A DNA stretch of 64,000 nucleotides, taken from assembly GCA_045598545.1 (NCBI GenBank), contig JAZLMI010000005.1, positions 7,665-71,664 on the forward strand, given 5' to 3'. Below are positions 26,112 through 64,000 of the stretch, in pieces; position 1 is the first letter of the stretch; every line of letters begins with the position of its first letter. Both the position numbers and the translations under genes were made by a program. The notes under the pieces were generated by a model, which worked only from the letters and a program-made list of their open reading frames with translations, did not search any database and was not told where the DNA came from. This stretch comes from Christensenellaceae bacterium. Lineage in GTDB: Bacteria; Bacillota; Clostridia; Christensenellales; Borkfalkiaceae.

Positions 26112-28040
26112 TTATTTACTGCTCGTATCCTCTTCCTCTTCTACGGCTTCTTTAGGTTTAATGAAAAGCAATACGACTATTCCTATTAAACACAACACGC
26201 CGATTCCCAAGAAGATTACCGAAGTAATGTGGTCTTTAAACCAATTTTCGTAAGGATAAACAACGGTTTTTGACTTTTGAACTTTAATTATTGTAGATTT
26301 AGATACAGCCCTTGTTGCCGAAGCCTTTGAAGAAACGGTACAAGTAATCTTATACGCACCTTTTTTGTTAGGAGTGAAAGTAAGTTCTCCGTCATAATTA
26401 ACTTCTTTGTTAGACTTTTCTATTTCAACCCAATCATCCGAATCTTCGTTTGCGTTTACGTTAGAATTGTAATAAAGTTTATAATCTATATTGAATCCGG
26501 AAGCATCGATGTCAAATGCGGAAGACTTATATTTCGTACCTATAAAACCTTCGCCTTGACTATCTACAACGGTAAGTATTATCGGAGCGTCGTCGTCAAC
26601 GTGGAAACTAAACACGAAGTTATGATACATTTCTTCATCACTAATAATATCTTTGCCATCTTCCGTGGTAACAAAATCTTCCTTTTCCATAGCGTTATTA
26701 CTTTCGTCCGTAAACACTACGTAGAAAACGTAATTCCCTGCCTCTTTCAACGTGAAAGATAAGGAAGAAGTATTGCCGGAATTAGCCGTTGTAGGAGCGG
26801 TGTAATAAACAGTCTTTTTCAAAGAAGAATAACCTGTAAAATCGTCGTAAACCAAACTACTCATATCGGGGATAGAAATACTGTTTCCTAAAACTACCGA
26901 GTGAGCGGGAACATCCCCTTCAGCCTCTACGAAATATTGTTTTTTCAAAGATGCAATAAAACTTTCGTAAGCCTCGCTATCTTTATCTAAATCATAATAT
27001 TTAGGAGCGGTAGTATCCGCACTACTGTTAAATACGTCTACAAAATATTCTTCGTATGCCGTTTCTTCAGCATTTACTTTAGAAACGACTTTAAATGAAA
27101 ATTCTCCAACCCCGTTAAACTGAATAGAAGTGGGTTTATCCATTGAAGCAAGCCAAATATTGCAATCGGAAGGAATTTCTCCTTTTACCAAATACAAACT
27201 ACTGCTCGTTACGTTTCCGAAGAAAGAATAAGCGTTCATAGAAACGGTATATTTAGTTCCGTTATACTTTTTAAGTTCATAAGCGTTTCCGGTATTAGTG
27301 AAGAAATTTTCATCTATGACTACCATAGGATAAGCACGTTCGATATTTGTAGTATTATCGCATTCGAAGTTTTGTTTATACTTATGTTCGCCGTCGGAAA
27401 CTTTTTGGTCTATACTCTTTATAGAAAAATCGGGAGTTTCACTTTCTTCTACACCGAAAACAAATTCCATATCGGTAGCAACGGTTTTATCAACCGTTTT
27501 TACTTTATAATAACTATTCGTTTCGGTAAAATCCCAAGAATTTACCGAGAATTTAAAGAAATTATCAATAACGTTAATGCTTATCGTAATTTCCCCGTCA
27601 TTAATAGCATTTTCAGAAACGGAATTATCGTTTACCTTAATGTTCCAACTCGCTTCGTTACGGGTAAGAATAAGTTTATTAACTATATTTGTATCAAACT
27701 CTCCGTTAGAATTTTTATTTCCGGTAGAAATATAAGATTTAGCGGTAACGTTAAAGGTAAGTTGATTTATCTTTTGGGAAATTTCCCCTAATTCGATTGC
27801 AAAATCGTCTACAACAAAATCGTTTTTAAATTTCAAATTATTACCGTCTGCAACCTTAACTACCAAAGCATTATTTTTGAATTCTGCCGAGTTAAAACTT
27901 CCGCTAACGTAAGAACTAGCCAACGTGCTTTCTGCTTTTACGACGTGAGAGTTAAAACCGAAAGACAAGAAAAATGCCGTTACAGATAACACGAACGCCA
28001 CAATAAGAGTTAAAATTTTATAGGATTTAGCTGTTTTCAT
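26112..28040 (-). CDS. Large secreted, C-terminally membrane-anchored protein of unknown function
   Basis: I prefer the start MKTAKSYK (ATG 28040, AAGGAG upstream), because the consensus promoter overlaps the longer start. It has a signal/anchor segment, about 590 aa of Asn/Ser/Thr-rich beta-type sequence, one C-terminal TM and an acidic tail (EEEEDTSSK). Confidence 0.7.
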   Translation of the reverse strand: MKTAKSYKILTLIVAFVLSVTAFFLSFGFNSHVVKAESTLASSYVSGSFNSAEFKNNALVVKVADGNNLKFKNDFVVDDFAIELGEISQKINQLTFNVTAKSYISTGNKNSNGEFDTNIVNKLILTRNEASWNIKVNDNSVSENAINDGEITISINVIDNFFKFSVNSWDFTETNSYYKVKTVDKTVATDMEFVFGVEESETPDFSIKSIDQKVSDGEHKYKQNFECDNTTNIERAYPMVVIDENFFTNTGNAYELKKYNGTKYTVSMNAYSFFGNVTSSSLYLVKGEIPSDCNIWLASMDKPTSIQFNGVGEFSFKVVSKVNAEETAYEEYFVDVFNSSADTTAPKYYDLDKDSEAYESFIASLKKQYFVEAEGDVPAHSVVLGNSISIPDMSSLVYDDFTGYSSLKKTVYYTAPTTANSGNTSSLSFTLKEAGNYVFYVVFTDESNNAMEKEDFVTTEDGKDIISDEEMYHNFVFSFHVDDDAPIILTVVDSQGEGFIGTKYKSSAFDIDASGFNIDYKLYYNSNVNANEDSDDWVEIEKSNKEVNYDGELTFTPNKKGAYKITCTVSSKASATRAVSKSTIIKVQKSKTVVYPYENWFKDHITSVIFLGIGVLCLIGIVVLLFIKPKEAVEEEEDTSSK

Positions 28041-28079
28041 AATAAGCCTAATACTCCTTATATACACTGTATCTATCAT

Positions 28080-33654: not shown

Positions 33655-33922
33655 TAGCCGTGCTATGTGGGGAGTTAGCGATGCCCTGTAATCCGCAATT
33701 CGCTTAGCGGAGCAGAACACCGTTTGAGGCTTAACCGGTGGAAGGCAGGATAAAATAAGGAATGTTGATTTTAAGGTCTTATGCAATAGGTTCCCGTGAA
33801 CCGTGTCAGAGTAGGAATACAGCATCACTAAACGGATAAATCTATGTGCCATAAGGTTGCTTTAAAGGAGTTACCTGTTTTGTTACCGCTTCGGCCCGTT
33901 ATTTCGATTTCGGTGCACGGTT
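33655..33922 (+). ncRNA. ffs: Signal recognition particle RNA, long Bacillus-type (Alu + S domains)
   Basis: GCCGUGCUAUGUGGGGAGUUAGCGAUGCCCUGUAAUCCGCAAUUCGCU parallels B. subtilis scRNA GCCGUGCUAAGCGGGGAGGUAGCGGUGCCCUGUACCUGCAAUCCGCU. The S domain reads GAACCGUGUCAG-AGUA-GGAA-UACAGCAUCA (GGAA tetraloop). The 3-prime end CGGUGCACGG pairs with the 5-prime GCCGUGC and is followed by U7. Confidence 0.85.
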
Positions 33923-39394: not shown

Positions 39395-40822
39395 ATGAAT
39401 AACTCTAAATATTCGGAAAAAATCAAAAAGATAAAAGATAAACTTTCGTCTTCGGATGTGTCTTTTATAGACTTAAAAGCGGGGAAATCCAAGGCCGTTT
39501 TAATATTCGTAAATAACCTTGTGGATAAAGAAGCGATAGGAAATTTAATAGTAAAGCCCCTATCGGGGATAAAGGGGAAAGTTACCGAAAAAGTTTTATT
39601 CGACACGTTTTTAAGCCCCGAAAAACAAACTTTAACTTCATTAAAAGATATTTTCGATAAAATTGCATTAGGTTGCTCGGTGCTTATAGTAGATAATATA
39701 GACGTAGCATTCTCTTTTGAACTTAAAAAATTCGATAAACGTGCTATAACGGAACCGCCCACTTCGACAGTTATTAAAGGTCCTAGAGAAGGATTTGTAG
39801 AGAGTCTTCCCGTCAACGTAAGTTTAATGAGAAGGAGAATAAAATCTCCCGACTTAATATTCGAAGACTTAATAATCGGGAAATACTCTAAAACTCCCGT
39901 TTCTATATGTTATATTCGTGGAATAGCGGATAAAAAATTAGTAACAGAATTAAAGGAAAAAATAAAAAAAATAAGTATAGATGCGATACTTGATTCTTCT
40001 TATATATCCAAGTTTTTAGGAGAGCATAAAACTTCGGTTTTTAAACAAATAGGAAATACCGAAAAGCCCGATATATTAGCGGCTAAAATTTTAGAAGGGA
40101 GAGTAGCGATATTCGTAGACGGTTCTCCCATTGTTTTAACCGTTCCCTACATTTTAGTCGAAGACTTCCAAAGCCCAAGCGATTATTACAGTTCTTCTTA
40201 CAGTGCGACTTTTGCAAGGGTATTAAGGTTAATTTCGGTATTTATATCTTTACTTTTGCCTGCGTTTTTCGTTTCGGCTGAACTTTTCCATTTACAACTT
40301 ATTCCTTTAAGTTTTTTACTGACAATAGAAAACAGCATAAAGGGTATTCCCCTATCACCGAGTTACGAGATGTTTTTCACTCTTTTAATATTCGAAATTT
40401 TAAACGAAGCAAGTGTAAGAATGCCTAAGTACGTCGGAATGGTAGTTTCCATTGTAGGGGCTTTGGTATTAGGAGAAACTGCGGTAAATGCGGGTATTAT
40501 TTCCGCCCCGACCTTAATGGTCGTGGCACTTTCGGGAATATGCTTATACACAGTACCTGAATTAGAGCAAACGCTTTCTATTATACGACTTGCCTTCTTG
40601 ATAATAGCGGGAACTTTCGGAGCATACGGACTTTTAAATGCCATAATATTTTCTATAGTATATTTAATTACTTTTGAAAATTATTCAACCCCCGTATGTG
40701 CCCCATTTTCACCACTTATTAAAAAAGACTTAAAAGACAGTTTTTATAAAGGATTTTTAATGGGACAAGAAAATAGACCTTTATCCATTAAAAACGCAAA
40801 CAAAAAAAGATTAGGAGAATAA
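39395..40822 (+). CDS. Spore germination protein, GerA/GerKA (A subunit) family
   Basis: 475 aa with the conserved GerA core (E.P.....IKGPREGF.E....N..L.RRRI; ILEGRVAIFVDGSP) and a C-terminal TM cluster. Confidence 0.9.
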   Translation: MNNSKYSEKIKKIKDKLSSSDVSFIDLKAGKSKAVLIFVNNLVDKEAIGNLIVKPLSGIKGKVTEKVLFDTFLSPEKQTLTSLKDIFDKIALGCSVLIVDNIDVAFSFELKKFDKRAITEPPTSTVIKGPREGFVESLPVNVSLMRRRIKSPDLIFEDLIIGKYSKTPVSICYIRGIADKKLVTELKEKIKKISIDAILDSSYISKFLGEHKTSVFKQIGNTEKPDILAAKILEGRVAIFVDGSPIVLTVPYILVEDFQSPSDYYSSSYSATFARVLRLISVFISLLLPAFFVSAELFHLQLIPLSFLLTIENSIKGIPLSPSYEMFFTLLIFEILNEASVRMPKYVGMVVSIVGALVLGETAVNAGIISAPTLMVVALSGICLYTVPELEQTLSIIRLAFLIIAGTFGAYGLLNAIIFSIVYLITFENYSTPVCAPFSPLIKKDLKDSFYKGFLMGQENRPLSIKNANKKRLGE

Positions 40823-40823
40823 T

Positions 40824-41918
40824 ATGCAGTACGAATTAAAAACCAGACAAATTTGTTTTTTCTTTATAGCATTCTTACCGGTAACAAAAATGTTTATGCT
40901 TCCAAGCATTATATCGGCAAGTGCAAACGAAGATATGTGGATATGTTCACTTATAAATTTAATTCTCGATTTCATAACGGTACTATCTCTTTCTCTTATA
41001 TGTAAAAACCTAAAAACCGATTTTAAAGGACTTTTAGAAAACTGCTTTGGTAAAACGGGTAAAATAATAGTCTTATCTTTATATTTTATATATTTCTTAT
41101 TGAAGGCGTTTTTGCCTTTTAACGAGCAAAAAGATTACGTAGAATTGACCTTATATCTAAATATGCCTAAAATTTTATATTTTTTACCCATATTCGTTTC
41201 GACTTTTTATATAGCGACAAAAAGATTAAGAGTATTCGGAAGGCTTGCGGACGTATTCTTACCAATAACGATAATAGGCTACGTTTTGATTATAGCACTT
41301 GCCATCCCAAACACAGATTTAACCGCAATACTCCCGATAGGAGCAAACGGAATAGAAAAAATATTTAACGGAACTTTAAATTCTTTCACTTGGTTTGGAG
41401 ACTGTGTATATCTATTATTCTTTATAGGCAACTTTTCTTATAAGAAAAGAGATTGCTTAAAAATAATATTGTCATTTATTGTTTCGGCAATTATGGTAAT
41501 ACTGTTTATGATAATTTTTTACGGAATATTTACTTCCATAGGGTTTAGGCAACGCTTTGCTTTAACCGAAACTTCTAAATATACTACCGTAATAGCAAAC
41601 ACGGGGAGATTTGATTATATAGGTATCACTTGTATACTTCTATCTAATATCGTAGCGATGTCATTACCCGTATATTTTGCAAGCGACATCTTAAACGAAA
41701 TATTTTATATTAAAAATAAATGGTTATCGCCACTAATTGTTACCGCAATATTAGTACTTACAATAACAGTTTTGGAAGAATATTTTTATTCGTTCGAAAA
41801 TTTTATAACTAACTATGCGGGATTTTATTTTTTAATATTCGCAAACATAGTTCCGCTATTTACCGTATTATTAAAAAAAGGAGGTAAAAGAAATGAAGCA
41901 ATCAAACTTAAAAACTAA
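40824..41918 (+). CDS. Spore germination protein, GerAB (B subunit, APC-type permease) family
   Basis: 364 aa, 10 TM segments. Immediately follows the A subunit. Confidence 0.85.
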   Translation: MQYELKTRQICFFFIAFLPVTKMFMLPSIISASANEDMWICSLINLILDFITVLSLSLICKNLKTDFKGLLENCFGKTGKIIVLSLYFIYFLLKAFLPFNEQKDYVELTLYLNMPKILYFLPIFVSTFYIATKRLRVFGRLADVFLPITIIGYVLIIALAIPNTDLTAILPIGANGIEKIFNGTLNSFTWFGDCVYLLFFIGNFSYKKRDCLKIILSFIVSAIMVILFMIIFYGIFTSIGFRQRFALTETSKYTTVIANTGRFDYIGITCILLSNIVAMSLPVYFASDILNEIFYIKNKWLSPLIVTAILVLTITVLEEYFYSFENFITNYAGFYFLIFANIVPLFTVLLKKGGKRNEAIKLKN

Positions 41919-43113
41919 AATAATTTTATTTATAGTATTTGCGTTTTTCGTATTTTTCTTTTCAAACGATTTCGGTTTAGTCGATATAGAAAAAACCGCC
42001 ATAATAACGGCAGTTGCGATAGACATAGACGACGAAGGAAAATATATTGCCACCGCACAAATTGCAGTTCCCGAAGCGACAGATACGAGTACGGAAAATC
42101 AAAAATCGGAAATTTCTGGGATAGGCTATACAATCGGCGAAGCAATAAAAGATATTTCCGACGTTTCAGGATGGTTTCCGCAACTTGCATTTTGTAATCT
42201 TATAATAATCGGAGGAGAACTATCCACAACTAACGTAATAAGAGTAGTGGATTATTTTGCGAAAACTTTAAGGGTTCAAGATTCGGCGATAGTCGTAATG
42301 GCGGAAAAAAAGGCAAAAGACTTAATGCAAGTAACTTCCCCATTAGACAATATATCTTCATTTGCTATCCAAAAAATACTTTTACAAAGTCCGGGATTCG
42401 ATAAAGACACCGCAACTATGGATATAAAAACCTTTTCGACCGACTATTACGGAAAAGCCTCTTCTTCTTATATGCCTTTTGTTAAGGTAATAGATTTAGA
42501 GAGAAAACCTGCAACGCCGTTAGAAGAAAGCGGAGAAAGTGATGGAGGGTCTACGAGCCAAGATTCTTCCACGAAAGGCGGAAGCGGTAAAAAATATCTT
42601 TTCGACGCAAGTACTACTGCACTTTTCAAAAACGGAATAATGGTCGGAAGTTTAAATTCCTCTCTTACAAGTATGCTTAACGCAATAACGGAAAATTATG
42701 CGGGAAGCACGATATCTTTAAATAACGTACAAGATAACGGAGATACACATAATTATCTGGTAACCGTTATAAAATCGAAACCCGAAATGAAACTGGAAAC
42801 TGAAAAAAACGGGCTAAAATTTTCGGTATCGTTAAATTTATACTGTAAAATAAGTGATGAAAATGCAAAAAATTCAGACGCCGATTATGCTAAAAACAAA
42901 CCTTTGCCCACACCCGTAAAACAAAAAATAAAAGAACAGTTTGAAACGGGAATAAAAGAACTTATACAAACTTCCATAGATACCGATTGTGATTTTTTGA
43001 AAATAAAAGAAAAACTGTATCGCTTTCATAATAGCGAATACAGTTTATATAAAGATAATTTTTTACAGGTATTAAATTACGACGTAAAGGTAAACGTATC
43101 GGGGCAAAAATAA
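41893..43113 (+). CDS. Spore germination protein, Ger(x)C lipoprotein family
   Basis: 406 aa with an N-terminal hydrophobic anchor. Typical A-B-C operon order; overlaps the B gene by 26 nt. Confidence 0.8.
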   Translation: MKQSNLKTKIILFIVFAFFVFFFSNDFGLVDIEKTAIITAVAIDIDDEGKYIATAQIAVPEATDTSTENQKSEISGIGYTIGEAIKDISDVSGWFPQLAFCNLIIIGGELSTTNVIRVVDYFAKTLRVQDSAIVVMAEKKAKDLMQVTSPLDNISSFAIQKILLQSPGFDKDTATMDIKTFSTDYYGKASSSYMPFVKVIDLERKPATPLEESGESDGGSTSQDSSTKGGSGKKYLFDASTTALFKNGIMVGSLNSSLTSMLNAITENYAGSTISLNNVQDNGDTHNYLVTVIKSKPEMKLETEKNGLKFSVSLNLYCKISDENAKNSDADYAKNKPLPTPVKQKIKEQFETGIKELIQTSIDTDCDFLKIKEKLYRFHNSEYSLYKDNFLQVLNYDVKVNVSGQK

Positions 43114-55166: not shown

Positions 55167-56432
55167 TTATTTTTTTACGGTATCTCTACCGATTTTGGCA
55201 AATTTCAATATTCTTTCCTGTAAAGAAGGCGTTTCCTTTATAGATTTAGAAGAGAACATACCGTATTCTAAACCTTTTTCGGAAGAAATATACTCGTGTC
55301 CGATAAGTGCCCAAGTGGAATCTATCAAGTGTGAATAATCGGGATTAGCAAGAGCCTTACATTCGAAAAGTTGTCTTGGCGAATTTATATCTTCTCCGCT
55401 GATTTGGAAAAAGTCCATATCTTTACAATAACCTATTACCCTATCGAGTTGAGCCTTAGTGTTTCTAGTCGGCATATAAGCAATAGCAAGTATTCCTATC
55501 TTTTTAATTTCTTCTAAAAGTTCTGGTAAGAAATCGTCTTCGAATTTTTGTGCTTTTTTATCTCCCGTAACCGAATCTCCAACGTCCCCTAAATATGCGT
55601 AAGCGGGAATAGCCCCGAATTTAATTGCGGTCTTTACGAAATCTTCTGCATACGGCATTTCTTCGTCGGCATCTATATAAAAGAATTTAGTGTCCGCTTT
55701 AAGAACGCCTAAAAGGTCGTATAAAAAGTGCGGATTTTCCTTATCCAACAAATATCCTTTAACCTTATCCGAAACAGCGAGATTTAAGTCGTTTTGTAAA
55801 AAATCTATTAAATCTTGACTCCTCCCAAACCTGTCGCCGAGTTTAATAGCGAGTGCATATAATAAATGCCTTTCGGTTATACTTCCGCCTAAGTTCGCTT
55901 GAGAAATAGGATATACGTCTTTTTTAAAGTCCAAAGAAAGTCCGAACTTACCGTATTTTTCGGTAATAAGTTCGCACATTTTAGCATCTCTTTCATATCT
56001 TTTTTTACGGAATCCCGACAAATATTCGTTAAAAGGTTTAACGCTTTCTCTTGGAATACCGTGAGCCGCCATATAAATACAGTCGGCTTGGTCTGGGTGA
56101 TTTATTTTCCCGAATCCCCTGTTGAATTTAGCCCTAACTTCAACACCCGAAGTCGCACCCAAATTCAATATAGTGCAGGCCTTTTTAAATTCTTCTACAC
56201 CCGAAAGTGAGTCGTGGTCCATAATTCCGGCACTAGTAAGTCCCGCACGGTAAACCATATAAGCGGCCTTAGTCGGAGAATAAGGCGAAAAAGAAAATAT
56301 CGTGTGAATATGATTATTAGCGTCGTTATCTCTAACAACGGGTTTTTCTTCCCCCTTCAATATTTGTTGAAGAGCAGAAAGTCTGTCTTCTTTATTACTT
56401 GCATTTAAATTTTCAAAAAGTTGTTTGTCCAT
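55167..56432 (-). CDS. PHP-domain (polymerase/histidinol phosphatase-like) metal-dependent phosphoesterase, long form
   Basis: N-terminal H.H motif (NNHIHTIFS) followed by MDHDS. 421 aa. First gene of the operon. Confidence 0.65.
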   Translation of the reverse strand: MDKQLFENLNASNKEDRLSALQQILKGEEKPVVRDNDANNHIHTIFSFSPYSPTKAAYMVYRAGLTSAGIMDHDSLSGVEEFKKACTILNLGATSGVEVRAKFNRGFGKINHPDQADCIYMAAHGIPRESVKPFNEYLSGFRKKRYERDAKMCELITEKYGKFGLSLDFKKDVYPISQANLGGSITERHLLYALAIKLGDRFGRSQDLIDFLQNDLNLAVSDKVKGYLLDKENPHFLYDLLGVLKADTKFFYIDADEEMPYAEDFVKTAIKFGAIPAYAYLGDVGDSVTGDKKAQKFEDDFLPELLEEIKKIGILAIAYMPTRNTKAQLDRVIGYCKDMDFFQISGEDINSPRQLFECKALANPDYSHLIDSTWALIGHEYISSEKGLEYGMFSSKSIKETPSLQERILKFAKIGRDTVKK

Positions 56433-59336: not shown

Positions 59337-60047
59337 TTAATCAACGTAAATTTCGGTAGAAGAATCGTTATTATCAGCCGTATTATTAGCAAAAGAGAAG
59401 AATTCTTGGTCTAAATCGAAAGAATCTACGTTAGAATAAGCGACTAATTTACTTATAGACACTTCGTAAGCGGTCAATATTTTGGTTTCTTCTTCGGATA
59501 GTTTTTTTTGATATTCACGGCTTTGAATTCTACCCGAGATTGCAATTTTTTCTCCGACCTCTAAATTTTTAGAAAATCTTGCGTTTCTACCCCAAGCGAT
59601 ACAAGGGATATAATCGGACTTATTATAGGAGCGGTTAACGGCGATTAAAATATCGGCGATTTCCCTGTTAAAAGGAGTAGTTCTGTAAACGGGCGGTTTA
59701 CAAATATATCCCGAAAGGACGATACTGTTAGGGTTTCTAACCGAAACGAAGTCTAAAATTTCACGGATAAAGACGGTAAGCATGAGTTTACTTTTGCCGT
59801 CAATAAACTTATTGTAACTTCTAAACTGACCGATAGCGTTAATGATAACGCCTTTTTTTAAAGACTTATCGGAAATAAGTCTTTCGGACACCGTAACGGG
59901 AAGGATATCGCCCTGTCCCGAAAGACGCAAGACTTTAACGTTCATTTCATAGAAGCCTTCGCCGTATACTTCGTGAGAGAATTCTGCGTCGGTAACAATT
60001 TCCCCGCTGATAAATACTCTGTTGTTTTTCTCTGTTTCTGTGTTCAT
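59337..60047 (-). CDS. Single-stranded DNA-binding-like protein with two OB-fold halves
   Basis: 236 aa. Two internally similar segments (N.V.ISGEIV....FSHEVYGE.FY...V.V.RLS...D.LPV and NS.VLSGYICK.P.YR.TP..REIAD.L.AVNR......DYIPCIAWGRNA), then an acidic tail ending in an aromatic residue. Confidence 0.6.
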   Translation of the reverse strand: MNTETEKNNRVFISGEIVTDAEFSHEVYGEGFYEMNVKVLRLSGQGDILPVTVSERLISDKSLKKGVIINAIGQFRSYNKFIDGKSKLMLTVFIREILDFVSVRNPNSIVLSGYICKPPVYRTTPFNREIADILIAVNRSYNKSDYIPCIAWGRNARFSKNLEVGEKIAISGRIQSREYQKKLSEEETKILTAYEVSISKLVAYSNVDSFDLDQEFFSFANNTADNNDSSTEIYVD

Positions 60048-60077: not shown

Positions 60078-60845
60078 TTAAGTAATCGGAATTTGAGTTC
60101 CGTCGAAAGCGATAGTGAAATTATCTCTGTAAATAAGTTCCCCAATAGTAACGAAAGAGAATCCTTGTTGTTTTAGGGAAGTAATAATATCGGGAAGAGC
60201 CTCTAAAGTATGAAGACCGTTGTTATGAAAAAGCACGATAGAGCCGTTTTTAACCTTGTTTAAGACTCTTTTTTTTATGTCTTCCCTAGAGATATTTTTC
60301 CAATCGATAGAATCGACGTCCCATTGAATAGTAAAAAATCCCAAATCCCTAGCGGTAGTAATAAGTAAGTCGTCGTAATCGCCGTAAGGGGCACGGAATA
60401 AATCCACTTTTTTACCCGTAATATTTTCTATTGCTGAAGAAGAAGTGTTAAGTTCTTTTTCTATATCGGTTTTAGAAAGTTTACTCATATAAGGGTGAGT
60501 TGCGGAATGAGTACCGATTTCGTGACCGTAATCGGAGATTTTTTTAATATAATCGGGATACTTAACCGTCCAAAACTCGACCGCAAAAAAAGTGGACTTA
60601 ACGTTTTCCTTTTTCATAACGTCTAAAATTCCGTCGGTGTATTCAACGCCCCAAGCACAGTCGAAAGAAATGGCGATTTTCTTTTCGTCTGTCTTAACGC
60701 AATATATAGGCAGTTCTCTTTTTTTAGATTCCGAAAAAGTGGAAATAATACCGCTTTTTAAGATTATAGTAATGAGTAATATACAGGCTAAAATTATAGA
60801 CGATATTATAAGTAACTTTTTTTTCTTGACGAATACGAAAAACAT
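60078..60845 (-). CDS. Polysaccharide deacetylase (NodB domain; PdaA/PdaB-like)
   Basis: N-terminal TM/signal. NodB motifs FDCAWG, HS..H (GTHSATHP), RAPYG, LFH. Confidence 0.88.
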   Translation of the reverse strand: MFFVFVKKKKLLIISSIILACILLITIILKSGIISTFSESKKRELPIYCVKTDEKKIAISFDCAWGVEYTDGILDVMKKENVKSTFFAVEFWTVKYPDYIKKISDYGHEIGTHSATHPYMSKLSKTDIEKELNTSSSAIENITGKKVDLFRAPYGDYDDLLITTARDLGFFTIQWDVDSIDWKNISREDIKKRVLNKVKNGSIVLFHNNGLHTLEALPDIITSLKQQGFSFVTIGELIYRDNFTIAFDGTQIPIT

Positions 60846-60993: not shown

Positions 60994-61007
60994 CGAACAA
61001 ATGTTTG
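60994..61007 (+). promoter_or_regulatory. LexA (DinR) operator / Cheo box
   Basis: CGAACAAATGTTTG matches the Firmicute consensus CGAACRNRYGTTYC at 13 of 14 positions and overlaps the -35 element of the downstream promoter. Confidence 0.55.
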
Positions 61008-61033
61008 ACTTTTAATTGTTTAGGTAGTATACT
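61005..61033 (+). promoter_or_regulatory. Promoter of the radical-SAM/DUF4130 operon (predicted leaderless transcript)
   Basis: TTGACT (61005-61010), 17-nt spacer, TATACT (61028-61033). The ATG at 61040 begins 7 nt after the -10 and has no SD. Confidence 0.55.
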
Positions 61034-61039
61034 CGAAGT

Positions 61040-62293
61040 ATGATAGATGCAAAAAGGCTTACGATATTGACGAACGGTGCTAAATACGACGTATCGTGTT
61101 CGTCTTCGGGGTCAAAGAGAGAAAATAAGGAAGGCGGATTAGGGAACGCCTGTTTTGCGGGGATATGCCACTCTTTTACACAAGACGGTAGATGTATATC
61201 TTTATTAAAGATGCTTTTAAGTAACGACTGTGCATACGACTGTAAATACTGTGTAAACCGTAGAAGTAACGACGTAGATAGGGCTACCGCCACCCCGACC
61301 GAGATATGTGAGTTGGTTATAGAGTTTTATAAAAGGAATTATATAGAAGGTTTGTTTTTGTCTTCGGCGATAATAAAGAACGCCAACTATACTATGGAAC
61401 TTTTATTTGAAACGGCAAAAAAATTAAGGACGGAATATCACTTTAACGGATATATACATTTAAAAGGAATTCCCTCCGCCGATAAAACTCTTATAGAAAA
61501 AGCGGGATTTTATGCGGATAGAATGAGTTTCAATATAGAGTTACCAACCGAAAAGAGTTTGAACTTGTTAGCCCCGCAAAAAAGTAAAAAAGCGATAATA
61601 GAGCCAATGAAAATGTTGGCACTAGATAAGCACTACGATTCTCCGTTAAAAAGAAGACCGGATTTTTTGCCTGCGGGACAAACGACGCAAATGATAATCG
61701 GAGCATCCCCTGAAACAGATGCACATATATTAAAACTTACCGAATATATGTATTCTAACTATAAATTAAAAAGGGTGTATTATTCTTCCTACGTTCCTAC
61801 TAATTTTTCAACTTCCCTTCTCCCCTACACGCCTACTCCGCTTATAAGGGAAAATAGACTGTACCAAGCGGACTGGCTTTTGAGATTTTACGGGTTTACG
61901 GCGGAAGAGATAACCGAAAACGATGGAAATCTCTCATTAGAGTGCGACCCCAAATGTGCTTGGGCGTTAAGGCATTTAGAATACTTCCCGATAGAGATAA
62001 ATAAAGCACCGCTTGATATGATTTTAAGAGTGCCGGGGATAGGCGTTAGGACTGCAAGAAGAATAGTTTCCGCAAGGAAATATTGTAAACTGCAATTTGA
62101 AGATTTGAAAAGATTGAGAGTGGTATTAAAACGGGCTATGCACTTTATTACGATTGAGGGTAAATTTTACGGAGAAACAAAAGAAAACGCACTTAAAAAT
62201 TTACTGACTTCGGGAGAAAATTTAAAGGTAACGCAACTTTCTATGTTTAACGAAATAGAAGCGGGAATTTCCGCATTAACGGGTGAACTATGA
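61040..62293 (+). CDS. Putative DNA modification/repair radical SAM protein (TIGR03916-like)
   Basis: 417 aa. N-terminal AKYDVSC.SSG and the radical SAM triad CAYDCKYC. The C-terminal region is helix-hairpin-helix-like (LRVPGIGVRTARRIV). Confidence 0.8.
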   Translation: MIDAKRLTILTNGAKYDVSCSSSGSKRENKEGGLGNACFAGICHSFTQDGRCISLLKMLLSNDCAYDCKYCVNRRSNDVDRATATPTEICELVIEFYKRNYIEGLFLSSAIIKNANYTMELLFETAKKLRTEYHFNGYIHLKGIPSADKTLIEKAGFYADRMSFNIELPTEKSLNLLAPQKSKKAIIEPMKMLALDKHYDSPLKRRPDFLPAGQTTQMIIGASPETDAHILKLTEYMYSNYKLKRVYYSSYVPTNFSTSLLPYTPTPLIRENRLYQADWLLRFYGFTAEEITENDGNLSLECDPKCAWALRHLEYFPIEINKAPLDMILRVPGIGVRTARRIVSARKYCKLQFEDLKRLRVVLKRAMHFITIEGKFYGETKENALKNLLTSGENLKVTQLSMFNEIEAGISALTGEL

Positions 62294-63027
62294 TTGTATT
62301 TTTAATAGAAAAAAGCGTAGAAGGTATCGCTTCCGCTTTGTATAAAAGTTTTACCGAAAACGTCCTTCCCGACGCAGTTTTCGACGTAGATAACTACCAA
62401 ACCAAAATGGAAGAAACCGAAATAGACGTAACGTGTGAAAAGGAAAAATATAATAAAGTTATCTCGGCAATTTTAAGATATGCGGGAGAGCAAACGCTTT
62501 TAAACTTAAATTATTGCGTTAAATCTTGTAAAGAAGAAGCATTAAGCGTTGCTTTTAATTACTCGTACTTAATACTTAAAGAGAGAAAAGACCTTTCCGA
62601 TAAATGGAATAAAAAAGAAGTGTCTGACTTTAACTTTATCGTTCAAACGGTAAGTAAAGAAAGACACTATATAACGGGATTTTTAAGGTTTAAAGAAACT
62701 CTTAAAGGCGTACTGTATGCGGAATTTTCTCCCGATAACGATATAGTAAAGATAGTCGCAACGCATTTTTTCAAAAGGCTTAAAGGTAAACCGTTTGCCA
62801 TACACGACTTAAAGAGAAAAATAGCCGTTTTATCTAACGGCAAAGAAATGCAAATAGTAGAAACTAACTCTGTAACGGTAAATTTAAGTAATAAGGAAAG
62901 CGAAATAGAAAAACTGTGGAAAAAATACGTAAAGTCAGTAAACATAAAAGAGCGAAAAAACTTACGCCAACAATCTAACTTTATGCCTAAACGGTATCGA
63001 AAGTTTATGCCCGAAACTTGGGAATAA
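62290..63027 (+). CDS. DUF4130 / TIGR03915-like putative DNA repair partner protein (no UDG-like fusion)
   Basis: 245 aa. Overlaps the radical SAM gene by 4 nt (ATGA). Contains a H...GFLRF.E.....LYA.F.P.N.I motif typical of the partner family. Confidence 0.7.
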   Translation: MIVFLIEKSVEGIASALYKSFTENVLPDAVFDVDNYQTKMEETEIDVTCEKEKYNKVISAILRYAGEQTLLNLNYCVKSCKEEALSVAFNYSYLILKERKDLSDKWNKKEVSDFNFIVQTVSKERHYITGFLRFKETLKGVLYAEFSPDNDIVKIVATHFFKRLKGKPFAIHDLKRKIAVLSNGKEMQIVETNSVTVNLSNKESEIEKLWKKYVKSVNIKERKNLRQQSNFMPKRYRKFMPETWE

Positions 63028-63066
63028 AAAAAGTCTGACGCTAAAAAATAGCATCAGACTTTTTTA
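63026..63066. terminator. Bidirectional terminator between two convergent genes
   Basis: Stem AGTCTGA(C)GC / GC(A)TCAGACT, flanked by A6 upstream and T5 downstream. Confidence 0.7.
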
Positions 63067-63091: not shown

Positions 63092-64000
63092 TTATAAGGT
63101 AGGACTCCATACCGTCATTAAAAGCGGTTTTAAAGTAATGGTTTTTCCCGTTAAAATGTTCGTATCGTTAAATACGGTAGTACTTCCCACTTTCTTTCTT
63201 TCGCCCTGATACTCATAATACCAGTAGTTAAACATATAATCTTGGGAATTAACGTCAACAAAAGAAACATCAGAAGCCTTGGGAAGATTATCCCCCATCG
63301 CTTCTCCTGTTTTTACCGTAATCGGACCGAAAGACGTTTGCCCCTCCACTTTAACGGTTACGGGAGAATAACTTAAATTCCAAGAGCCATTTTCATACAC
63401 CCAATCCGACTTCATGCCCGTCAAATCAAAATATACAGTGTAACTCTCTTCTTCATTGTCCTCTATCTTGTACCAGTAATGATTACGATAGGTAGACGTA
63501 AAGCAAGTTGCGTTAGTAGAGGGATTTGTTAGGTCAATTAAAGTTCCGCCCGTATAATCCGAATTTTCCGTTACGTACCAATCCTCAGTATTTTTAAACG
63601 TTACACTTTGTAAGGAAGAACAATTCCAAAACGCATACTCACCTATCGAAGTGACGCTATTTGGTATCTCTATACTTTGTAATGAAGAACAATATTCGCA
63701 CGCCCAGTCATAAATAATTTTACAATTATCATTTATTACGCAAGAAGTTATCGAAGTATTTTTTGCTTTTACTAATACTAAATATTTATTATCGCTATTC
63801 CCTAAATACAATCCGTTACCATATTCGTTATATTGTAAAGAAGCACAACCTAAGAACGCATAATCACCTATCGAAGTGACGCTATTTGGTATCTCTATAC
63901 TTTGTAATGAAGAACAATCATAGAACGCATAATCACCTATTGAAGTGACGCTATTTGGTATTATAAATTCTATTTCGGTTTTACCTATGGCATACTGTAT
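63092..64000 (-). CDS. BspA-type leucine-rich-repeat surface protein, C-terminal part (ORF open to the window edge)
   Basis: Repeated units IPNSVTSIG(D/E)YAF..CSSLQS(I/V). The frame stays open upstream of the TTG/Met used by the track, through to 64000. The C-terminal 170 aa are a non-repeat beta-rich domain. Confidence 0.8.
   Translation of the reverse strand: MQYAIGKTEIEFIIPNSVTSIGDYAFYDCSSLQSIEIPNSVTSIGDYAFLGCASLQYNEYGNGLYLGNSDNKYLVLVKAKNTSITSCVINDNCKIIYDWACEYCSSLQSIEIPNSVTSIGEYAFWNCSSLQSVTFKNTEDWYVTENSDYTGGTLIDLTNPSTNATCFTSTYRNHYWYKIEDNEEESYTVYFDLTGMKSDWVYENGSWNLSYSPVTVKVEGQTSFGPITVKTGEAMGDNLPKASDVSFVDVNSQDYMFNYWYYEYQGERKKVGSTTVFNDTNILTGKTITLKPLLMTVWSPTL
63640..63961 (-). repeat. Near-identical coding repeats (LRR units)
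   Basis: The 54-nt block CACCTATCGAAGTGACGCTATTTGGTATCTCTATACTTTGTAATGAAGAACAAT occurs at 63640-63693 and 63865-63918. A third partial copy at 63923-63961 differs from 63854-63892 by one base. Confidence 0.85.

Follow-up and report, generated by a model that had tools for sequence, protein, structure and literature searches.

The gene pair that encodes a radical S-adenosylmethionine (SAM) protein of family TIGR03916 and a DUF4130 protein of family TIGR03915 is among the most widespread damage-linked gene pairs without a known reaction. An operon of COG4277, a radical SAM protein with a helix-hairpin-helix (HhH) module, and COG1573, a family 4 uracil-DNA glycosylase (UDG) often combined with DUF4130, is SOS-regulated in Verrucomicrobia, Alphaproteobacteria and Bacteroidetes (PMC8565304), and the radical SAM and TIGR03915 genes of Acinetobacter are activated by DdaA (PMC12392091). 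Gene context tied DUF4130 to SOS-type repair in 2013 (PMC3765255). Here we describe such a pair in a stretch of 64,000 nucleotides (nt) from a Christensenellaceae bacterium of the Clostridia (contig JAZLMI010000005.1), hereafter called the window. Its two open reading frames (ORFs), ORF1 for the radical SAM protein and ORF2 for the DUF4130 protein, lie behind a putative LexA operator.

The window shares with the COG4277-COG1573 operon and with the Acinetobacter pair the presence of the same two families side by side and the apparent control by a DNA-damage regulator of the host. It differs from both in its Gram-positive GAAC-N4-GTTC box, its Clostridia host, a DUF4130 protein that stands alone without UDG, and a promoter that abuts the start codon. 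For homologs from Lachnospiraceae bacterium 3-1, AlphaFold 3 predicts a tight heterodimer of the DUF4130 and radical SAM proteins, in which DUF4130 is regarded as a non-catalytic nucleotide-binding subunit (bioRxiv 10.64898/2026.08.19.745780). Like the window, that pair combines Fer4_12/radical SAM and HHH_3 domains with a standalone DUF4130 partner, and its DUF4130 protein shows the same DHH/DHHA1-like resemblance as the model of ORF2. The preprint leaves aside regulation, the start codon and the N-terminal cysteine triad.

The gene pair and its link to damage are already known. The SOS link is not new either, because SOS control has been published for the three groups named above (PMC8565304), and a specialist will not be surprised by it. 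In the literature searched we found no report of LexA control of the pair in Firmicutes. The earlier surveys of gut Firmicutes and of C. difficile do not list it: the pair goes unmentioned in the main text of the gut Gram-positive SOS meta-regulon study, and searching the C. difficile LexA regulon paper by term returned no radical SAM gene. What is new is modest: a Cheo box conserved in front of the pair in most of the Clostridia loci sampled, a predicted leaderless promoter design that recurs, and a candidate second Fe-S site. The model that we favour and consider reasonably probable is that of a LexA-switched leaderless operon whose products form a radical SAM/DUF4130 complex acting on damaged DNA; its regulatory part is better supported than its functional part. 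The locus offers a clean entry to an open biochemical question and a compact experimental system: the two genes are unfused, the promoter spans some 50 bp, the boundaries are clear, and there is a candidate second Fe-S site.

LexA operator and operon layout

An earlier note, made by a model from the letters of the window, had read a LexA box over the promoter of the pair and had placed the pair in the SOS regulon. The 14-nt box CGAACAAATGTTTG agrees with the consensus CGAACRNRYGTTYC at 13 of 14 positions, the last base being the sole mismatch, and overlaps the -35 hexamer by 3 nt. The -35 and -10 hexamers together score 10/12 in a promoter scan. The bare consensus with up to two mismatches shows no enrichment in the window (18 sites found, 26 expected). 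Since this plain count is uninformative, a position weight matrix (PWM) and phylogenetic footprinting were used instead. The PWM was trained on orthologous promoters only, with the window left out. It assigns 19.7 bits to the box; no other site in the window exceeds 11 bits (the runner-up has 10.5 bits), and the chance expectation for sites of at least 19.7 bits is 0.006.

For the footprinting, 50 genomic loci with ORF1 homologs were fetched, 48 of them usable for the box count. The nearest loci belong to metagenome-assembled genomes (MAGs) of Christensenellaceae and other Clostridia from gut or rumen, at 70-78% identity. A GAAC-N4-GTTC box with at most one mismatch was found within 110 nt upstream in 37 of the 48 orthologous loci, which are not phylogenetically independent, the corresponding figure for background windows from these loci being 2.2%. 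Three further loci have the box at -135 to -241, which brings the total within 250 nt to 40/48. Among the loci without a box are those from Bacteroidetes and Neisseria, where LexA motifs of another kind or other regulators are in use. In the 12 closest relatives both the box and the -35 hexamer are invariant (alignment A1). In more distant Clostridia the boxes, one or two in number, overlap the -35, fall between the hexamers or follow shortly after the -10; all of these are repressing positions. The 13-nt core GAACAAATGTTTG is the same as the cores of the C. difficile lexA and recA operators, which purified LexA binds in surface plasmon resonance (PMC4234289). Phylogenetic footprinting and this shared core strongly support SOS control of the pair, as the earlier note had proposed. 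With a textbook LexA operator whose sequence and position are both conserved, the Clostridia pair would thereby fall firmly within the Gram-positive SOS response.

The operator suggests a simple switch. In the unstressed cell a LexA dimer would sit on CGAACAAATGTTTG, and RNA polymerase would be kept off the promoter because the LexA site and the -35 hexamer share three bases. Upon DNA damage, RecA filaments would promote the self-cleavage of LexA, and the sigma-A type promoter would fire.

Downstream of the promoter, ORF2 is joined to ORF1 by an ATGA overlap of 4 nt, as the earlier note had read it, and the overlap is kept in close relatives. A hairpin closes the transcription unit; it folds with -18.5 kcal/mol (z = -8.0), and none of 200 shuffled sequences was equally stable. 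With its promoter, ATGA overlap and closing hairpin, the locus is a self-contained bicistronic operon (Table 1).

Table 1. Features of the radical SAM/DUF4130 operon, in positions of the window
Feature	Position	Strand	Basis and remarks
LexA (Cheo/DinR) operator CGAACAAATGTTTG	60994..61007		Sequence reading, PWM, conservation; overlaps -35
-35 hexamer TTGACT	61005..61010	+	Sequence reading, promoter scan; TTGACT or TTGCTT in relatives at the same position
-10 hexamer TATACT, 17-nt spacer	61028..61033	+	Promoter scan; aligned with the -10 of relatives
ATG and predicted transcription start (+1 = A) of a putative leaderless mRNA	61040..61042	+	Spacing, homology, lack of a Shine-Dalgarno sequence
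ORF1, TIGR03916 radical SAM protein, 417 residues	61040..62293	+	Hidden Markov model (HMM) score
N-terminal C20, C43 (with H44) and C52, candidate auxiliary Fe-S site	61097..61195	+	Invariance
CX3CX2C radical SAM cluster motif (C64, C68, C71)	61229..61252	+	Sequence; invariance
Helix-hairpin-helix module, residues 318-359	61991..62116	+	HHH_3, 2duy, conserved residues
ATGA stop/start overlap, ORF1/ORF2 coupling	62290..62293	+	Sequence reading
ORF2, TIGR03915/DUF4130 protein, 245 residues, without UDG fusion	62290..63027	+	HMM scores
Intrinsic terminator hairpin with A and U tracts, bidirectional, end of the operon	63027..63065		RNA fold

No SOS gene was found among the approximately 30 annotated ORFs of the window. 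Tblastn probes for RecA and LexA had no match in the window, and no recA was found in the 145 fetched loci. Their sole match across the window and these loci is a LexA-like S24 peptidase ORF in Ferruginibacter, of the Bacteroidetes (locus L050, 317-694, minus strand), about 3.3 kb upstream of the pair; non-canonical LexA proteins are known from Bacteroidetes.

Nearly all other strong PWM sites in the 1.08 Mb of loci are the own promoter of a radical SAM operon. One other strong site (16.6 bits; locus L037, around position 225) lies 14 nt upstream of a RhuM-like ORF of 348 residues, a gene class for which LexA binding was shown by electrophoretic mobility shift assay in the gut meta-regulon study (PMC3998124). 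The box and promoter of the relatives are found in locus L038 (3760-4000) about 240 nt upstream of ORF1, with inserted sequence, possibly a small ORF, in between. Two loci that lack a Shine-Dalgarno sequence (L074 and L123) have a ZapA-like ORF divergent from the intergenic region that bears the LexA box. In view of this arrangement, one operator might serve both a ZapA-like cell-division gene and the radical SAM operon in these lineages.

The encoded proteins and their proposed reaction

The family assignments of the earlier note hold for both proteins. ORF1 matches TIGR03916 with 599.2 bits (cut-off 343.5), residues 5-399 covering model positions 3-405 of 415. Its motif CAYDCKYC supplies C64-x3-C68-x2-C71, and these three cysteines are invariant in all 46 diverse family members compared. 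Beyond the features listed earlier, C20, C43 and C52 are invariant in the same 46/46 members, as is H44 next to C43, which suggests a candidate auxiliary Fe-S cluster. The AlphaFold2 model of ORF1 has a moderate mean predicted local distance difference test (pLDDT) score of 74.3, with residues 20-50 modelled poorly. Given this low model confidence around the extra cysteines, the argument for a second cluster is one of conservation.

At the C-terminus of ORF1, the HhH-like region noted earlier contains a canonical hairpin, VPGIGVRTARRIV. Pfam HHH_3 matches it with 22.9 bits (E 9.4e-5), under the cut-off of 27. In a sequence search of the PDB the HhH is the only matching segment, hit by the ComEA-related chain 2duy at E 5e-4. 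Within the module P332, G333 and G335 are nearly invariant, and the pLDDT is about 90. The nearest folds to the radical SAM core found by Foldseek are LipA/LIAS (lipoyl synthase), PFL-AE (PFL activase), HydG, MiaB and HydE. Several of these enzymes carry auxiliary clusters.

ORF2 belongs to TIGR03915 (190.7 bits, cut-off 112.25) and to PF13566/DUF4130 (136.8 bits, cut-off 27), and DUF4130 is its only domain, UDG being absent. The conserved pairing cited in the earlier note is borne out by the sampled loci: the two genes are adjacent in 48/50, and the two exceptions stop at a contig edge. The partner family comprises 4,483 clusters at 50% identity. Standalone partners make up 48/48 of those sampled and all of the best 150 of the 4,483 clusters in a profile search, with sizes of 240-286 residues apart from one 180-residue fragment and two over-extended mechanical ORF calls. 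DUF4130 is normally unfused in this part of the family. No UDG-fused form occurs among the best 150 of the 4,483 clusters, and since all of these are standalone, our account of the fused forms relies on the literature. The AlphaFold2 model of ORF2 (pLDDT 92) has a distant likeness to DHH/DHHA1 proteins (PAP phosphatase, pGpG phosphodiesterase, RecJ), the best match being 8a8k (E 2.8e-4, TM score 0.42). The invariant residues of ORF2 are mostly Arg, His and aromatic residues and lie in the C-terminal half. A role of ORF2 as a DHH/DHHA1 phosphoesterase was considered and rejected: it has no Pfam DHH or DHHA1 match and no DHH motif, and the likeness of fold is distant.

We propose that ORF1 would be the catalytic subunit, with the radical SAM [4Fe-4S] cluster on C64, C68 and C71 and a probable second Fe-S site at C20, C43 and C52, with H44 adjacent. 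Its C-terminal HhH module would grip DNA. ORF2 would be the non-catalytic subunit, a degenerate DHH/DHHA1-like nucleotide-binding fold docked on ORF1, and would offer the active site a nucleotide that is single-stranded or flipped out. There the 5'-deoxyadenosyl radical would take a hydrogen atom from a damaged base or sugar, and the lesion would be reversed or processed. Action on damaged DNA, which the earlier note also suggested, is what the domain content, the UDG fusions in other phyla and the damage regulation in several phyla would point to by analogy. Several points weigh against the proposal. The literature searched, up to a 2026 preprint, describes no substrate or reaction for any family member, in agreement with the earlier note, which knew of no chemistry for the pair. 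The structural neighbours LipA, MiaB and HydG have proteins, RNA or small molecules rather than DNA as substrates. The N-terminal region of ORF1 that holds the extra cysteines has a pLDDT of only about 40.

The pair could instead modify nucleic acid, DNA or RNA, by a damage-induced sulfur insertion, methylthiolation or other base modification of the LipA/MiaB kind, with the auxiliary cluster as reagent. The best structural neighbours are indeed enzymes with auxiliary clusters (LipA/LIAS, MiaB, HydG, HydE), ORF1 has a weak HMM match to LipS1, and three extra cysteines are invariant. Nucleic-acid modification is also favoured in the 2026 preprint, which describes a narrow channel and single-stranded substrates (bioRxiv 10.64898/2026.08.19.745780). 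LexA control in most sampled Clostridia loci and the SOS or damage regulation reported for this type of operon in other phyla argue for repair instead, and other lineages in which DUF4130 is fused to a UDG-like domain suggest DNA repair of the base-excision type. Moreover, the context holds no methyltransferase, restriction or defence gene, and PADLOC gives no match. We therefore regard modification as unlikely and keep to damaged DNA as the favoured target. The readings of the pair as an anti-phage defence system or as phage genes were rejected, because neither ORF matches PADLOC or PHROGs.

Spore photoproduct lyase (SplB), to our knowledge the only radical SAM enzyme of DNA repair whose chemistry is known, acts on DNA in spore-forming Firmicutes and is SOS-regulated in several species. 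ORF1 resembles it in being a radical SAM enzyme, with action on DNA proposed, and differs from it in an obligate partner protein, the HhH module and three extra invariant cysteines. ORF1 itself was rejected as an SplB: no SplB model of NCBIfam matches at E <= 0.01, and spore photoproduct lyase is outside the top 50 Foldseek matches.

Start of transcription and translation

The leaderless mRNA was a bare guess in the earlier note and now has comparative support. In a leaderless promoter, the -10 hexamer ends 6-7 nt before the AUG and no Shine-Dalgarno (SD) sequence is present; here TATACT is followed by CGAAGT (6 nt) and the ATG at 61040, whose first base lies 7 nt past the last base of the -10. 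The 20 nt in front of this ATG pair with the anti-SD at -3.9 kcal/mol; the median of 53 ORFs of the window is -8.2. Since most other genes of the window have strong SDs, the leaderless design is an exception there. The predicted mRNA has essentially no structure in its first 50 nt.

The ATG at 61040 corresponds by homology to the start codon that follows the SD in the relatives, many of which have an in-frame stop codon 6-30 nt upstream of it, and it opens the conserved N-terminus M-x-D-x-(K/R)-(K/R)-L-x-I-L-...-AKYDVSCSSSGS. On this comparison it is the true homologous start. Metagenome contigs were searched for ATG codons located 36 nt ahead of the AKYDV codons and having a box at a distance of 26-37 nt. 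Of the 95 matches, 19 have the design of the window: box over the -35, spacer of 16-18 nt, -10, exactly 6 nt, ATG and no SD. The distance of 6 nt is kept in 19/19 of these loci, including those with promoter spacers of 16 or 18 nt. Among promoters of this design with at most 11 nt between the -10 and the ATG, 19/20 have 6 nt, the exception (L119) having 9 nt, while SD-type relatives with the same promoter design have 16-20 nt. The 19 SD-less loci range from 31 to 58% GC and fall into at least four clades besides that of the window (at least five with it), interleaved with SD-type clades in a neighbour-joining tree. A leaderless transcript is most likely the best reading of the window, and the comparison shows the design recurring for the radical SAM/DUF4130 operon in several lineages.

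Under this reading, transcription would start at the A of the ATG at 61040 and give an mRNA with neither 5' leader nor SD, and ribosomes would load straight on the 5'-AUG. ORF2 would be translated through the ATGA coupling, and the transcript would end at about 63065 at the terminator. As the earlier note surmised, such a start may allow translation under stress.

The operon may be under LexA control and yet not be leaderless, either with a transcription start a few bases further upstream or with translation from an in-frame TTG at 61067, preceded by AAAAGG (61052-61057) as SD and giving a product shorter by 9 residues. Both the possible conventional start and the SD leader present in 12/12 closest relatives, a stretch of 10-14 nt that the window lacks (alignment A1), weigh against the leaderless reading. 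AAAGG pairs with the 3' end of 16S rRNA 9 nt ahead of the TTG, and strong SDs are the rule at most genes of the window. Against this, AAAAGG merely encodes the conserved Lys-Arg/Lys pair, which is also present in relatives with a normal upstream SD, and a start at Leu10 would drop the conserved K/R-L-x-I-L motif, in which L10 is invariant and L7 is kept in at least 90%. In 19 other loci, too, exactly 6 nt separate the -10 from the homologous ATG. We hold this alternative, a conventional start, to be quite unlikely.

The SD leader of all 12 closest relatives also makes it conceivable that 10-14 nt were lost recently by deletion and that the arrangement was not selected. By this account, or by an assembly error in the MAG, the operon would be poorly translated and possibly decaying. 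The window is the sole SD-less member within an otherwise SD-type clade, and its exact protein has no second copy in a collection of 15 billion proteins, its cluster having one member. On the other side, both ORFs are intact and keep all family-invariant residues, and the leftover spacing is exactly the 6 nt of the 19 SD-less loci. A random deletion is unlikely to hit this value, because 19/20 short-spaced promoters have exactly 6 nt. We consider this explanation less probable still than a conventional start and retain the leaderless transcript. Last, it is barely credible that the Cheo box is a palindrome arisen by chance in AT-rich intergenic DNA and that the operon is outside LexA control: the unenriched consensus count (18 against 26 expected) would fit this reading, but it is effectively refuted, as far as comparative data go, by the PWM expectation of 0.006 such sites, the box at 37 to 40 of 48 orthologous promoters (loci not independent) against 2.2% of background, and the conserved placement of the box, which covers the promoter hexamers or lies between them.

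Leaderless mRNAs are common in Actinobacteria; in the window, by contrast, the design is exceptional, and it appears bound to the radical SAM/DUF4130 operon in at least five lineages. A precedent for a leaderless SOS gene is lexA of M. tuberculosis (PMC2897130), which, like the predicted promoter of the window, is LexA-controlled and has a transcript that starts at the start codon. The recurrence of the design is a small, testable point about SOS gene expression where strong SDs otherwise rule, and the leaderless and SD-bearing variants provide a natural comparison. We speculate that the pair could be a second kind of radical SAM DNA repair enzyme after spore photoproduct lyase: a two-cluster, two-subunit enzyme, LexA-switched in anaerobes, for a lesion poorly handled by excision repair, with the repeatedly evolved leaderless promoter as an adaptation for fast protein after LexA cleavage. 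Taken as a whole, this proposal is possible and on balance doubtful.

Other features of the window

On the opposite strand lies a polysaccharide deacetylase gene (60078-60845, minus strand). Directly downstream of it and 1 kb from the SOS promoter, a gene for a 236-residue SSB-family OB-fold protein (59337-60047, minus strand) matches Pfam SSB with 66.7 bits and, strongly, phrog_26861, a family without assigned function. Neither the SSB-like nor the deacetylase gene is linked to the radical SAM pair in the 145 fetched loci.

A GerA-type spore germination operon (GerXA-like protein, spore permease, GerAC) at 39395-43113 on the plus strand indicates that the organism forms spores. Three ORFs on the minus strand, of 421 (55167-56432), 333 (1688-2689) and 655 residues (26112-28079), have no or almost no family assignment; the longest has only a weak match to the Y_Y_Y domain. 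The large bacterial signal recognition particle RNA (RF01854, 169 bits) at 33658-33920 on the plus strand is the only Rfam match in the window. Beyond the terminator of the operon, a gene for a BspA-type leucine-rich-repeat surface protein (63092-64000, minus strand) continues past the end of the window; its DNA includes nearly identical repeats, each some 60 nt long, such as those near 63640-63700 and 63870-63960.

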